This document shows positions 22,447-27,594 of a stretch of 36,777 bases of DNA, one piece after another. Each line of letters opens with the position of its first letter. Positions within the stretch are counted from its first letter, which is position 1. The position numbers and the translations under genes are program-made. The notes beneath the pieces were generated by a model that made no database searches, was not told where the DNA came from, and worked only from the letters and a program-made list of their open reading frames with translations. This DNA comes from an uncultured archaeon (GTDB taxonomy: Archaea; Asgardarchaeota; Lokiarchaeia; Sigyniarchaeales; SOKP01), in NCBI GenBank assembly GCA_964583985.1, contig CAZOYD010000033.1, forward strand, positions 1 to 36,777, read 5' to 3'.

Positions 22447-22615
22447 GAAGAATCGGAATGATATAGAATTTGATTATAGGATTTGATTTATATTACAAAA
22501 TATTAATTTTGTAAAAAAGTTATGTAGAATCCATCTAAAATCTCGAAATGAATTGCTTAGTAAATTAAAAAAAAAGAAAATAGTAATTTAATAGTTAATA
22601 TTTGGGGATGATGAT

Positions 22616-24106
22616 TTACTTGGCTATTGGGGTTCCACAATACTTGCAGAAATTTGCTCCAGGAGTCAAATCACTTCCACAGTACGAACAAATTTTAGAA
22701 TTTACAGGGGTAACTACTCCAGATTCACCTAACTTTCTTCCTTCTACTTTTAATCCGCAATTTGGACAGTATTGAGAGTCTGCCCTTAGTTTTGAATTAC
22801 AGCGCACGCACTTTAATTCAGTGTCTGGTGGTTGTTTTTCTTCCACTGTCAATGTAGCTGTATCTTTTGGAGCAACTTGTGCTCCTGGTTTTGTCTTGAG
22901 TTTCTTTTGGCTCTTGCGCGCGACAAAAGCGATAATGATGATGATTCCCACGAAGATAATTAGACCGATCAAGAATGGTTGCACGTCTAACCATCTATCA
23001 ACACTATTAATGCCCGTATCGTAGGTCACATCAAACGTGATTGCCGTGCTTTCTTGAGGATCATTCATCGGGTCGAAGTATACAAAAAAATACCAATTAC
23101 CATCATTTGGGACCGTAAAAGTGTTCGTTGCTACGCTGTCCACGTCTTCAATGAAAAGATCAGTACTGCTAAAATCCACCACATTTGCTGCGGAATAGGT
23201 GATCGTATAATTCACGTCAACGGGTGAAGCTAGATCATTATACCATACGACATAATAATCATTAGCTTCTGAGATTGGTAGGACACCATTATCAGTAACA
23301 ATATTCGGTTCGTCCACGTAAAATGAAGGAGAACCTCCATTATCCCATACATACATGTCATTTGCATCAGCTATGAAGAAATCAATGGAGCTTGATGCAT
23401 TAAAATCATAAGTGAGAGAAGAACCGGATCTTAAATAAATTGAATAGTACTGATAATTATTGTGTATGAGATTGAAACTATCTGTGTCACCACCAATCAT
23501 CGTAACTCTTGGAAGCATCTCAAAAGGTTGATCCCAGATTGCAAAAGTAATGGTGCTGGGGCTAGATTGAACCGAATACGTTATATCATTCCCTGCTTTA
23601 ATGTTTTCATATTCATACCAGTATTCATTATAGTATATAGTTTCAGTGGAACGATATGTTACGGAACCATTCGTATCTGCTGAACTGAACGGAAACCATA
23701 TTGCCACACCAAGTAAGGGTAATAATATCAAGGAGAAAACGATTGCAACTACGACTCCTCCACCAACGTACATGGGTGAATAATACCAAGGTCGATAATA
23801 ATAACCGGCCCACATCGGGGAATACCACCATCTTCGATACCATGGGTAATACCATCCATATCCATAATATCGGCCACCATATCCGTAATATCTTCGATTT
23901 GGACCATAATATGAGTGTCTATAAGGTCCACTTGGTGATCTTGAGACTATTCTCGTTGATCCAGTTCTCCCAAAGGGAACTCCACTAGGTCGCCCACCAG
24001 TTCTAAACGTGGCACCACCGCCTCGAAATCCGCCTCCTGAAAAACCGCCGCCCATACCACCTCCTCGAAAGCCTCCGCCTCCTCTACTTCCACCCCCACG
24101 AGGCAT
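22616..24106 (-). CDS. two-TM membrane protein: RGG/Tyr-rich N-terminus, beta-rich loop domain, C-terminal double zinc ribbon
   Basis: Gly/Arg low-complexity then Tyr/Trp-rich tract; TM1 'VVVAIVFSLILLPLLGVAIWF'; acidic beta-rich region; TM2 'FLIGLIIFVGIIIIIAFVA'; CVRC..CPNC..CSYC..CKYC. Confidence 0.8.
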   Translation of the reverse strand: MPRGGGSRGGGGFRGGGMGGGFSGGGFRGGGATFRTGGRPSGVPFGRTGSTRIVSRSPSGPYRHSYYGPNRRYYGYGGRYYGYGWYYPWYRRWWYSPMWAGYYYRPWYYSPMYVGGGVVVAIVFSLILLPLLGVAIWFPFSSADTNGSVTYRSTETIYYNEYWYEYENIKAGNDITYSVQSSPSTITFAIWDQPFEMLPRVTMIGGDTDSFNLIHNNYQYYSIYLRSGSSLTYDFNASSSIDFFIADANDMYVWDNGGSPSFYVDEPNIVTDNGVLPISEANDYYVVWYNDLASPVDVNYTITYSAANVVDFSSTDLFIEDVDSVATNTFTVPNDGNWYFFVYFDPMNDPQESTAITFDVTYDTGINSVDRWLDVQPFLIGLIIFVGIIIIIAFVARKSQKKLKTKPGAQVAPKDTATLTVEEKQPPDTELKCVRCNSKLRADSQYCPNCGLKVEGRKLGESGVVTPVNSKICSYCGSDLTPGANFCKYCGTPIAK

Positions 24107-24108
24107 GC

Positions 24109-25110
24109 TTAATTTTTCACCTCAATGGTTAAAGACTTAGAGCGAAATATGTGATCTCTATAAATTGCCCCTAGGAATAGTAACATCGAAATGATCGACA
24201 TTGTCAATCCTAGTCCATTTATAACGACATTGGCGGGAGGGAAAGTTGTTGAAAAAGCAATTCCAAAGAGAATCCACTCCAGTACCAAGAAAACAACTAA
24301 GAGATGGGGAATGATTGAGCGCACGATCTTACCCGTACGAATATTTCTAGCATCCGAAAAGCTTGCATAAATAAGGGAAAATAGCCCTAAGATGCCGAAT
24401 ATTACGATAAGTAGGCTAATTATCACTATGAACACCCATATCACTCCATCTCGTGCCACTAAATCAAGAAACGGTATGAGAAAATCCGTCCCACGCGTTT
24501 CAAATAATCCGAAACTTATCACTCCACCTCGTATTTCCGCCATGCCAAAGAAACTTAAGAGTTCGGCTTGATTCCCCAAATAAAATCCATATACACCGAT
24601 TAGGGGTAATAATATACCAAGTACGAATCCTAAGATTGAACAGGTACTGGCAAACCAAAATTCAGCATTTTTAGTATTTGTAACGGGTATTAACCCTACC
24701 TCATCCACATTCTCATCAGGAATGAAACTCCAACAGTCTTGAATAGTGCATACCCCGACTAACTTGCCTTCAGAAACTACCGGTACAACATTCACGTGTA
24801 AGCCTTGCATTCTTGTAAATGCGTCTGTTACGGGTGTATCAAGAGAAACGGGTTGGATTTTATACATTGCAGAAGTAACATTTGTAATCTTCGGGTCTAT
24901 TCCTACTGCTACGATGTTTTGAATGATATCAAAATCAGCAATTACACCGAGAACGTTTTCCGTATTATCTTGCATGACTACTAAATCTGGTACTCCTAAC
25001 TCTTTCATTTTTTTTGCTGCGTCTTGTATTGAAGCCGTGGAATTTATTATTCCATAATCGTCATCAATGATTAAATCCTTAACAAGATAGTTTTTACTAG
25101 ATAAGCCCAT
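24109..25110 (-). CDS. CBS-pair (Bateman) domain fused to a 4-TM domain
   Basis: 'SIQDAAKKM...VLGVIADFDII' and 'AF..M....VNVVPVV..GKLVGV.T..D' CBS repeats followed by four hydrophobic helices. Confidence 0.8.
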   Translation of the reverse strand: MGLSSKNYLVKDLIIDDDYGIINSTASIQDAAKKMKELGVPDLVVMQDNTENVLGVIADFDIIQNIVAVGIDPKITNVTSAMYKIQPVSLDTPVTDAFTRMQGLHVNVVPVVSEGKLVGVCTIQDCWSFIPDENVDEVGLIPVTNTKNAEFWFASTCSILGFVLGILLPLIGVYGFYLGNQAELLSFFGMAEIRGGVISFGLFETRGTDFLIPFLDLVARDGVIWVFIVIISLLIVIFGILGLFSLIYASFSDARNIRTGKIVRSIIPHLLVVFLVLEWILFGIAFSTTFPPANVVINGLGLTMSIISMLLFLGAIYRDHIFRSKSLTIEVKN

Positions 25111-25264
25111 TTTTTTAATACCTTATTTATCATTAGATTTGTTATGATAAATATTGAATTAAGTATAATAATCTTTTCATAATCCAATACTTGATTTATT
25201 ATTATGCACTAATTGATCCCTATATAAAAATGTAAAATTAGAAAAGAAAAAGAATTATATTGCT

Positions 25265-25723
25265 TTAGTAAAACTCAACATTAGTAATTACTGTAGTGCT
25301 ATTAACAAGTTCTTGTGCTGCTTTCGTGGCACGCATTACTTTCGCCATGTTTCCAACGAGTTTAAATTTTCCAGCCATCAAACCTTGAATTGGATCGAGT
25401 TCCTTCTTTAACACTTTTAACCAATTATCATATGTTCCCGAAAAAACAAATTCAACTGCAGGCGGTTCGCCTTCCTTTAGAGGTACCGGAGCGGAATTGG
25501 GTTTTAACACCACATGTTTTTCTCCGGGACTTAATATTTTTCCTCCCGTGCAATCTCCTTTATACAATCCTATGAACATTTTGATCTCTTTATCTAATTT
25601 TCCACTAGGTTCAACTATAAATAGGAAGTCTCCTTCCCACCAAGAGGCAGCTGCTTTATAATTTGGATTATCGTTTATGGCTTTAATATAAGCTTTTACC
25701 CATTCTTCAGAAAATACTTTCAT
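25265..25723 (-). CDS. SCP2 sterol/lipid-binding domain protein
   Basis: FSEEW...IN....Y..AA..W.GDF and LDPIQGLMAGKFKLVGNM..VMR. ATG 25723 is preferred over GTG 25735. Confidence 0.88.
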   Translation of the reverse strand: MKVFSEEWVKAYIKAINDNPNYKAAASWWEGDFLFIVEPSGKLDKEIKMFIGLYKGDCTGGKILSPGEKHVVLKPNSAPVPLKEGEPPAVEFVFSGTYDNWLKVLKKELDPIQGLMAGKFKLVGNMAKVMRATKAAQELVNSTTVITNVEFY

Positions 25724-25882
25724 TTTTTTTCTCACATCTTATTTTTAAATTTTTAAAGCTTGTTAATTAATTTTAATTCAGTCTGTATTAATTAATTTTC
25801 TTCAAATGATTAAATTTCGAAAATGATGAGTAAAATGAAAATATAAGAAAGAGTAAAAAATGAACGATGAAAATCTAATAAA

Positions 25883-27028
25883 TTAAACACCAATTCCTAT
25901 GGTGTTTCCTATACCAGCTAAAATTATTTTTGAACCTTTTTCAGTTCTTTTTCGTATTCCCATCTTAATTTTTTCTACAATGGCAGGCACGGATTGCGTT
26001 ATGGGTCGTGTCATGACAGTTATGGCATTTTCAAGGGATTGTCGACATATGACAGCATCAATTGGTATTGCTTTTTTCGTACTTGAATCTTCAATAAAGA
26101 ATTTTTCTACACCAATTCCTCCTATGGCTGCTCCTACACCAATCACAATAGATCCAGTTTTATCACTTGAAAGTTTTAGACCCGCATCGATCATGATAAT
26201 ACGGGAGATATTTTTGCCTTGATCTTCAACCAATTTTTTAATAGCAGTGCCAGGTTTTCCGACTGTTCCTCCAGGTCCTTTCGCTCTAATGACATAAACG
26301 GTTCGGTCTTCGAAATCTACTTCTTGAACAATTGTATCTTTAGCAATTTCAATTGCTTCAATATCCTCTTGTTGAGATACATTTCGTACAAAACACCCTG
26401 CAACCATGGGTCCAAGACCATCACCTATAGGACTGCCTTCTGAGAAGGCTTTAGTTGCTCTATAATAACTCTTTGCCATGCCTAAAATTATGGATAATTG
26501 CATTGAGATTTGCATTAAAAGTATGTATGATTTTGATTTCTTGCCCATAATTAAGAAATGTTTGATTAAACGATAAATGTAGTCCACTGCTCCAGCAGCT
26601 TCAACTATATTTTCTAAATTTTGTGCTTCAGGACTTCCAGGAGTTACATTTGGAGCCAGGGTAGCAACTTCTTCTTTAAACCGATCATCTCTCACGTCAA
26701 TAATATGATCTAATTTTGGTATTATTCCATAAGGATCGAGTGAAACGGGTTCAATTGTTATAAAGGAGAGAAAATCTTCAAGCTTTAATTGTAAATCTTT
26801 ATCCAATTCCTTTTTATCAGCATATTTTTTGAATACGTCTAATAAAATTTGTTTGCATTCATCGTTCCATGTTTTAAGTTTTTCTAATCCAGTTTCAACC
26901 TCTTTGGATGATCGCCACATCTGAATTTTCGTGCCGTAAAACATTGAAATAAAGATCATTACGAAAAAAAGCAAGTTAAGTAGTATAGCCAACGGATCCG
27001 TTTGTGCTTGCATTAACATGAGTATCAT
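25883..27028 (-). CDS. DUF1512 family membrane-anchored protein
   Basis: I.PVSLDP.GI, PIGDGLGP.VA, KGPGG.VG.PG, IDAGLKL, G.AIGG.G.EK, GIGNT.G.G. Confidence 0.85.
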   Translation of the reverse strand: MILMLMQAQTDPLAILLNLLFFVMIFISMFYGTKIQMWRSSKEVETGLEKLKTWNDECKQILLDVFKKYADKKELDKDLQLKLEDFLSFITIEPVSLDPYGIIPKLDHIIDVRDDRFKEEVATLAPNVTPGSPEAQNLENIVEAAGAVDYIYRLIKHFLIMGKKSKSYILLMQISMQLSIILGMAKSYYRATKAFSEGSPIGDGLGPMVAGCFVRNVSQQEDIEAIEIAKDTIVQEVDFEDRTVYVIRAKGPGGTVGKPGTAIKKLVEDQGKNISRIIMIDAGLKLSSDKTGSIVIGVGAAIGGIGVEKFFIEDSSTKKAIPIDAVICRQSLENAITVMTRPITQSVPAIVEKIKMGIRKRTEKGSKIILAGIGNTIGIGV

Positions 27029-27159: not shown

Positions 27160-27594
27160 ATGATTGACGAAGAAGACGATGATGAAATCTTAAAAAAAAG
27201 TAGATCACTCAAGAAGATTTTGAAAAACGTGGCATTAATCGCATTAATAATTGTCGGAGCGCTTTTTATATACTTGGGGGGTACAGCTCAAATGACAAAT
27301 TTCTTTATTGGATTCACCTTGATTTGCATTGGTTCAACTTTGATTCAAATCCAAAAAAAAGAAGAAGAACCTACGAGACAGACTTTATCGATTTTAAAAT
27401 GTGATAAATGCGAAATTACAAAAGTGAGAAATTATGAACCCGGTGATTTTGTTTTTAAAATCGTAGATTCCTGTGAAAAATGCGATGAGGCAATGAAAAT
27501 CAATCAAATCTACAGCGTTAAATTAAAAAAATCCACCGCAAAAAAACAGGCTAAGGAAGTTACCTTAAAAAATAAAACTCAAGCAAAAACTTAA
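27160..27594 (+). CDS. small 2-TM protein with C-terminal zinc ribbon
   Basis: Two hydrophobic helices then CDKC...RNYEPGDFVFK...CEKC. Confidence 0.75.
   Translation: MIDEEDDDEILKKSRSLKKILKNVALIALIIVGALFIYLGGTAQMTNFFIGFTLICIGSTLIQIQKKEEEPTRQTLSILKCDKCEITKVRNYEPGDFVFKIVDSCEKCDEAMKINQIYSVKLKKSTAKKQAKEVTLKNKTQAKT

Follow-up and report, generated by a model that had tools for sequence, protein, structure and literature searches.

A conserved gene pair of Asgard archaea encodes a CBS-tetraspan protein and a receptor-shaped membrane protein with an APD-like ectodomain

The stretch of DNA analyzed here (the window; 36,777 nt, contig CAZOYD010000033.1 of assembly GCA_964583985.1, from an uncultured archaeon of the Lokiarchaeia) carries on its minus strand two adjoining genes, designated A and B, that encode membrane proteins and remain together wherever their linkage could be tested. 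On the observed gene structure, domain identities, folds, APD homology and strict linkage, the preferred reading, held with about even confidence, is that A and B together are a bicistronic operon encoding an Asgard-specific two-subunit membrane complex, in which A would be a CBS sensor and B an APD-like, receptor-shaped subunit; the complex, its ligand binding, the direction in which it would signal and its output are all putative. The two genes are as follows.

24109..25110, minus strand: gene A, 333 aa, in which a CBS pair is joined to a membrane domain of four helices (open reading frame; Pfam CBS match; AlphaFold2 model with a mean predicted local distance difference test score (pLDDT) of 83)
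22616..24106, minus strand: gene B, an APD-like two-pass membrane protein, 496 aa (open reading frame)

Linkage of the pair was followed through 80 species genomes, which gave 78 testable loci and two that were interrupted by a contig end. In all 78 testable loci A lies upstream of B on the same strand, bearing out the conserved neighborhood that an earlier note, made from the letters of the window alone, had named as a check, and in 77 of them the gap is 0–9 nt, a constancy that greatly exceeds chance. Each full-length match to A among 40 relatives likewise adjoins a full-length match to B. In an even sample of 300 Asgard genomes, A, B and the profile of the A membrane domain are each present in 76 genomes of the same families (48–50 of 67 in the family labeled f1, 6–7 of 7 in f2, 18–19 of 21 in f26, and one f9 genome), and neither gene was found in the 27 other families of this sample, including f11 (0 of 76). 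Both genes occur together in 74 of the 300; in the four genomes with a single one of them, that gene is a fragment at a contig end, and two apparent separations of A from B are contig breaks at which a partial A remains joined to B. The families with the pair span two classes, and the cultured Promethearchaeum syntrophicum MK-D1 (genome G037) has it as well, at about 886.0–888.4 kb of NZ_CP042905.2. In f26, a family of another class, A and B overlap by 4 nt, and the proteins are 37–41% (A) and 46–50% (B) identical to those of the window. Clustering of the open reading frames of 12 loci from other genera, other families and the second class left only A and B in common, and the genes flanking the pair change outside the genus. 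Because the linkage is held at this divergence while every flank changes, there is strong evidence at the sequence level, in spite of the kinship of the genomes, that A and B constitute one conserved, translationally coupled functional unit. In two assemblies (G220, contigs C292 and C13; G238, contigs C74 and C342) the contig break falls precisely between the two genes or inside one of them, with a partial A duplicated on two contigs; the repetitive RGG-coding DNA may be the cause. On one Lokiarchaeia contig, an Arf/Ras-type small GTPase gene (L048:7599-8513) lies ~1.1 kb downstream of a divergent A-B pair.

The anatomy of the locus, within a window that is AT-rich (about 30–40% G+C), is compatible with a two-gene operon, the promoter position being only putative.

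24118..24123, minus strand: Shine-Dalgarno-like GAGGTG within the 3' end of A, 11 nt upstream of the B ATG (read directly)
22567..22580, minus strand: 14-nt T-run TTTTCTTTTTTTTT, 36 nt past the B stop, the likely terminator and operon end
25111..25264, minus strand: 154-nt AT-rich intergenic region upstream of A with several TATA-like boxes, a putative promoter region

The junction reads GAGGTGAAAAATTAA-GC-ATG, with the A stop codon TAA at 24109-24111, the spacer GC at 24107-24108 and the B start codon ATG at 24104-24106, so that the 2-nt spacing (TAA gc ATG) of the earlier note is exact, with both open reading frames on the minus strand. A 2-nt spacer with a Shine-Dalgarno-like GAGGTG ahead of B is the usual picture of translational coupling. 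Archaeal RNA polymerase terminates at oligo-T, and the T-run past B was assigned on this ground.

The identity of B rests on its ectodomain, which comprises two nested units.

22991..23695, minus strand: B residues 138-372, nested beta-sandwich outside the cell, with homology to the luminal domains of APD1-4 (AlphaFold2, profiles)
23174..23500, minus strand: B residues 203-311, GOLD-like domain, an insert of the outer sandwich (structural comparison)

The AlphaFold2 model, built on an 81-sequence alignment, is all-beta in the ectodomain, with pLDDT >90 for residues 148-363. GOLD domains headed an exhaustive structural comparison of residues 203-311, which have the GOLD beta-sandwich fold; the leading matches, with the values returned, were as follows.

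5azw_B, p24beta1: 12.1; 1.4 over 87
5gu5_A, p24gamma2: 11.9; 2.1 over 102
7rrm_C, TMED1: 11.7; 2.0 over 94
1o6u_A, SPF: 10.8; 3.3 over 101
5azx_A, p24delta1: 10.4; 2.0 over 89

B differs from the p24/TMED GOLD receptors in that its GOLD-like unit sits inside a second sandwich, and in having two transmembrane helices and neither a coiled coil nor a COPI/COPII tail motif; the family EMP24_GP25L (PF01105) is not among the 16 that the B of the window matches at an expectation value (E) of up to 1. The eukaryote-derived model APD1-4_N (PF16040) matches the B of the window at residues 208-240 below its gathering score (15.0 bits vs 27, E 0.02), and matches 57 of 81 B family members, with a best E of 8.2e-7. 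In a six-frame scan of whole Asgard genomes the same model fell inside B genes in 13 genomes, above cut-off in 4–5, and it matched none of 14 control genomes. A reverse search of 1.84 billion proteins with the B ectodomain profile returned 116 matches, among them proteins of Pellita catalonica, Cochliopodium minus, Planopodium desertum, Balamuthia mandrillaris and Brassica cretica, the Heimdallarchaeota LC_2 protein OLS20438.1, and one protein named "APD1-4 domain-containing" by NCBI. When 67 remote matches were scanned, APD1-4_N was found in 23 and APD1-4_M in 17 (best E 1e-48 and 2e-40), zinc ribbons in 13, and the p24 GOLD family in 5. Alignment of B with 12 eukaryote-type rows by hhalign gave a probability of 98.6% (E 8.7e-16, 171 columns), with the shared motifs YEY..L.PGS, DF(F/Y)I, W..G and DYY.VW.N; it extends across the APD_M region of the eukaryotic rows, although APD1-4_M has no Pfam match in the B of the window. 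Since the eukaryotic rows were picked by the same B profile, this alignment is not independent, and the Pfam results constitute the independent evidence. Judged from sequence, then, the B ectodomain is a member of the superfamily that comprises eukaryotic APD1-4 (PF16040/PF16041) and GOLD-like domains, B being a distant, sub-threshold APD member with a GOLD-like fold and not a RING ligase. The earlier note had recognized no system that either protein matches, which for B no longer stands in view of Pfam, profiles and fold; as a pair, the two proteins match no already described system, there being none that combines both.

The likeness of B to APD1-4 extends to the layout of the protein, an N-terminal tail, a transmembrane helix, the domain, a second transmembrane helix and a cytoplasmic tail. 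B differs by its long RGG/aromatic tail, by its obligatory CBS partner, and by a double zinc ribbon with no RING match where the Arabidopsis ligases have a RING (zf-C3HC4_3). The RING-less amoebozoan relatives have two helices as in B and a similar G/R/H-rich start (MPRHGGG...): they begin with MPRHGGGSRSGG, MGKHGGG or MGRHGGGSRGGG, continue in a G/H/R/Y-rich tail, and end in P/Y-rich C-terminal tails, including PPPY. Shorter archaeal proteins, the Heimdall-type APD-like proteins of about 365–390 aa, begin with MRRGGGSRGGG and a Tyr/Gly/Arg-rich tail, followed by a transmembrane helix, the APD domain, a second transmembrane helix and a single terminal zinc ribbon. The B of the window is a long form, with an extra outer sandwich, the tail motif PFGRTG..R and two ribbons. 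In an unrooted tree of the domain, the eukaryotic sequences group with the short Heimdall-type forms and are split from the B family and its Loki paralogues with a support of 100 in the SH-like approximate likelihood ratio test (SH-aLRT); given the small size of the domain and a number of long branches, this quick tree serves as a lead only. No paper linking APD1-4 or DUF4792 to Asgard archaea was found in the library searched, and a 2024 survey of the endosomal sorting complex required for transport (ESCRT) mentions GOLD in other archaeal loci only (PMC10936438).

Outside the ectodomain, B consists of two tails and two helices.

23771..24106, minus strand: B residues 1-112, low-complexity tail in the cytoplasm, of RGG and Tyr/Trp/Arg type, in which the motif PFGRTG..R is invariant (composition, alignment)
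23696..23770, minus strand: first transmembrane helix of B, about residues 113-137 (AlphaFold2 helix 111-131, hydrophobic run)
22913..22981, minus strand: second transmembrane helix of B, about residues 376-398 (AlphaFold2 helix 368-403)
22637..22810, minus strand: B residues 433-490, two cytoplasmic C4 zinc ribbons (PF12773, PF13240 and PF13248 above cut-off)

The B family comprises at least 193 clusters, every named one of which is Asgard; B is single copy in its own genome, in which no paralogous copy was found. Among its first 112 residues are 32 Gly, 18 Tyr, 16 Arg and 6 Trp; Asp, Glu and Lys are absent, and the net charge is +16. Across the 81 aligned sequences, positions G42, P44, G46, R47, T48, G49 and R52 are invariant; the start MPRGGG is retained in all relatives, and in the form M-P/R-R-G-G-G it is kept from Loki to Heimdall forms. 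The ectodomain lacks Cys and carries a net charge of −29, and the C-terminal tail one of +7. These charges, with the two hydrophobic helices, set both tails of B on the cytoplasmic side and its middle domain on the outer side. The ectodomain contains 3 N-glycosylation sequons, where shuffled sequences average 3.9; there is no enrichment, and the sequons add nothing to the topology. PF12773 (DZR) matches the C-terminal tail at 39.7 bits against a cut-off of 27.3, and is found in 81 of 81 family members. Of the eight Cys residues, C433, C436, C447 and C450 are invariant in the 81 sequences and C473, C476, C487 and C490 are present in at least 90%, forming two sequential CxxC-x10-CxxC ribbons with 22 residues between them. 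A cross-brace RING was considered for these eight residues and ruled out; given the ribbon spacing, the DZR match and the lack of any RING match in Pfam, the cluster is not a RING. The layout drawn in the earlier note, with the N-terminal tail inside, a beta-sandwich outside and zinc ribbons inside, agrees with the model, the charges and Pfam. In the AlphaFold2 model, residues 22-53 (window 23948-24043) form short strands at 22-27, 45-47 and 51-53 with pLDDT of about 60–77, and structural alignments of the outer sandwich begin at residues 43-45, as if the PFGRTG hairpin completed the sandwich, which the membrane topology forbids. The B orthologues of f26 (L033:9114-10778, and those at L034, L035 and L036) are about 60 aa longer, their C-terminal ~65 residues holding an extra Cys/His-rich finger (C..H..CxxC..CxxC..CxxC) with a weak match to zf-RING_4 (E 0.0017, below cut-off); the B of the window is without this RING-like addition.

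The homology to APD1-4 raises an alternative that is judged unlikely, that B is a membrane-anchored ubiquitin-type ligase, or a ubiquitin/ESCRT adaptor, whose zinc fingers would recruit an E2, a ubiquitin-like protein or an ESCRT component under gating by the CBS pair. Plant APD1-4 are RING E3 ligases of the endomembrane system, for which no substrates are known (PMC13210498), and B shares with them the order of helix, luminal domain, helix and zinc-binding tail; the additional finger of the f26 orthologues with its zf-RING_4 match, and the PPPY-containing P/Y-rich tails of the amoebozoan relatives, count in its favor. However, the 22 residues between the second and third ligand pairs make the tail of the window's B two C4 ribbons in sequence instead of a cross-brace RING, RING models match weakly among the 81 members (best E 5e-4) and not at all in this B, and no ubiquitin-system gene adjoins the pair in any locus compared.

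The sensor part of the proposed complex would be A.

24715..25089, minus strand: A residues 8-132, cytoplasmic CBS pair, or Bateman module (PF00571, 51.2 bits, in two stretches)
24148..24675, minus strand: A residues 146-321, tetraspan domain (secondary structure assigned by DSSP on the AlphaFold2 model, pLDDT mostly 85–97)

The cytoplasmic CBS pair on four transmembrane helices described in the earlier note was recovered by both Pfam and the model, in which the helices following the CBS pair span residues 146-171, 224-254, 261-288 and 299-316. Two CBS repeats together form the Bateman module. Ribose binding in CBS domains is established to involve the motif G-h-h-(T/S)-x-x-D. A contains this motif and retains the Asp that contacts ribose in each repeat. 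In the GVCTIQD of repeat 2, G119, V120, I123 and D125 are invariant; in the GVIADFD of repeat 1, Ala stands where the motif has Thr/Ser, and the invariant positions are G55 and D61. Sensing of an adenosyl ligand by this pair is plausible. The linker between the CBS pair and the first transmembrane helix is strongly conserved (C126, W127, P131, D136, G139). In the model, the first helix is followed by a 52-aa outer loop with four short strands, the second helix, a 6-residue inner loop, the third helix, a short outer loop with one strand, and the fourth helix; few polar residues of this domain are conserved, the conserved positions being mainly Gly, Phe and Trp.

No known family accounts for the membrane domain. 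Residues 135-333 have no Pfam match, profiles of the A membrane domain and the B ectodomain found nothing significant among PDB sequences, and a look-alike search of the Atlas with residues 140-325 gave nothing above 0.84. In fold searches with A (Foldseek against the PDB, VIA wide and the Atlas) the lists were filled by CBS matches or by its own cluster, and a word-index protein search gave no match, which says little since it was limited to proteins of 30–99 aa. Among the 300 genomes, A being single copy, the tetraspan profile hit A genes only, plus one stand-alone paralogue, a 214-aa four-helix protein of f26 without the CBS pair (L137:1816-2460, genome G140, E 1e-9). Like MgtE, CNNM/CorB and ClC, A attaches a cytoplasmic CBS pair to a membrane domain, but in A the CBS pair precedes the membrane domain, which has four helices and is unrelated to theirs, and the conserved partner is a receptor-like protein encoded by its own gene; the CBS architecture of A is new. 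Its predicted order of helices and strands resembles that of claudin/PMP22 tetraspans, with a long first outer loop of four short strands. Claudin_3 matched 22 of 84 A members with a best E of 0.055, and not the A of the window, whose first outer loop (172-223), free of Trp and Cys, lacks the claudin W-GLW-C-C signature; a literature search for claudin-like proteins in archaea found nothing relevant.

A second architecture repeats the association of CBS and APD-like proteins. The short APD-like genes of families f18 and f29 adjoin a gene for a soluble CBS pair of 135–174 aa, which immediately precedes the APD-like gene, abutting it with a 0-nt gap or overlapping it, at loci L134, L139, L140 and L143, lies upstream as a partial copy at a contig end at L142, and lies downstream at L047; no CBS gene lies within 5 kb of the APD-like gene at L045, and the L141 locus is interrupted by a contig end. 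Against a model of the A CBS region, the full-length soluble genes score 81–94 bits and the L142 fragment 22.6 bits, and all other CBS open reading frames in the genome of the window score at most 28 bits. Such scores beside APD-like genes indicate that the conserved association is between this CBS subfamily and an RGG-tailed APD-like receptor, the CBS-tetraspan fusion being its Loki/f26 version. Since a soluble CBS protein can reach only the cytoplasmic tails, the putative CBS contact is placed there. A divergent RGG-type member of the B family keeps its CBS neighbor, and in a small sample of three Loki B paralogues without the RGG tail none had one. A fusion of CBS and zinc ribbon in one soluble archaeal protein, TA0289 (PDB 2qh1; also PDB 3ghd), differs from the two membrane proteins found here and, by analogy, gives a weak Rosetta-stone hint of a CBS/zinc-ribbon partnership. 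The RGG-less paralogues without CBS neighbors include those at L144:3002-4198 and on a Logan contig; one adjoins divergently transcribed cheB, cheC and cheD, and others form a tandem array of four, of 450–487 aa. Mini-paralogues of 152–158 aa, with a MRRGGG/Tyr-rich tail, one or two membrane helices and a terminal zinc ribbon but no ectodomain, stand beside Heimdall-type APD-like genes at L045:4259-4735 and L047:6622-7080.

It is doubtful that A is instead a CBS-gated channel or transporter in the manner of MgtE, CNNM/CorB or ClC, with B as an accessory subunit. CBS pairs commonly gate membrane transport domains, the CBS domains of MgtE and CorB are among the structural matches of A, and the linker from the CBS pair to the first helix is strongly conserved. 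The membrane domain, though, offers only four helices with few conserved polar residues, no transporter family matches A, and in the Heimdall-type loci CBS proteins of the same subfamily are soluble yet still paired with an APD-like gene, which points to B, and not a pore, as the conserved partner of the CBS pair.

Under the two-subunit reading, B would expose its acidic nested beta-sandwich, the outer sandwich with its GOLD-like insert, at the cell surface and bind something outside, while its RGG/aromatic N-terminal tail and double zinc ribbon would recruit cytoplasmic partners. The tetraspan of A may dock beside the two helices of B, holding the sensor at the membrane. Other Bateman modules form dimers; the CBS pair of A, probably dimeric as well, would bind an adenine nucleotide or an S-adenosylmethionine-type ligand and, when ligand-bound, alter the state of the cytoplasmic tails of B. 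The nucleotide or energy state of the cell would in this way be coupled to binding by B outside and recruitment by B inside. Several points weigh against this proposal. Related genomes are not independent observations; the short APD-like gene of Heimdallarchaeota LC_2 has no CBS gene within 5 kb; A might itself form a channel; and AlphaFold2 packs strands of the N-terminal tail of B against the ectodomain, an arrangement impossible across a membrane, for which reason the tails are regarded as poorly modeled.

It is improbable that, as the earlier note suggested, the RGG/Tyr tail serves to tether RNA or a condensate to the membrane, or that the ectodomain organizes contacts between cells. The composition of the tail is strongly conserved, its M-P/R-R-G-G-G start persists from Loki to Heimdall forms and resembles the amoebozoan MPRHGGG and MGRHGGG, and the acidic ectodomain is surface-exposed; however, no RNA-related neighbor or domain was found, the likeness is compositional only, and the invariant PFGRTG suggests a specific protein contact over bulk phase behavior. 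That A and B are mere neighbors with no joint function is very improbable, for A comes before B at every one of the 78 testable loci, at most 9 nt away or overlapping it, the two share one phyletic pattern, their linkage persists at 37–50% identity as all flanks change, and a CBS/APD-like pairing recurs in a second architecture.

Upstream of A on the same strand are an SCP2-like gene (window 25265-25735) and a DUF1512 gene (25883-27028; E 1e-47 for its N and 1e-56 for its C domain). A conserved operon extending beyond A and B was considered and rejected, the SCP2, DUF1512, HAD and PPDK neighbors being conserved within the genus only; the SCP2-like and DUF1512 genes, whose synteny is so restricted, lie outside the module. 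Window 27160-27594 encodes a 144-aa protein with one or two hydrophobic helices and a Cys-containing C-terminal part, for which no family match was obtained (DUF1894, E 0.067).

For the APD family, a further reading is offered as speculative and rather unlikely: the CBS/APD-like pair would be a prokaryotic forerunner of the eukaryotic APD endomembrane receptor/E3 system, in which zinc fingers, with a RING-like finger added in some lineages, might pass cargo or the protein's own turnover to the Asgard ubiquitin/ESCRT machinery, the CBS pair would set activity by nucleotide status, and eukaryotes would have inherited the short Heimdall-type form together with its G/R-rich N-terminal tail. If true, APD would join the proteins common to Asgard archaea and eukaryotes, and an orphan eukaryotic endomembrane group, represented in plants by RING E3 ligases for which no substrates are known, would acquire a partner conserved in archaea, namely a dedicated CBS sensor pointing to its regulation. 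GOLD-like surface domains and RGG-type tails are usually regarded as eukaryotic, and B provides a concrete archaeal case of the two in one protein. As the pair is present in the cultured MK-D1, co-purification, localization and ligand binding are directly testable in that organism.

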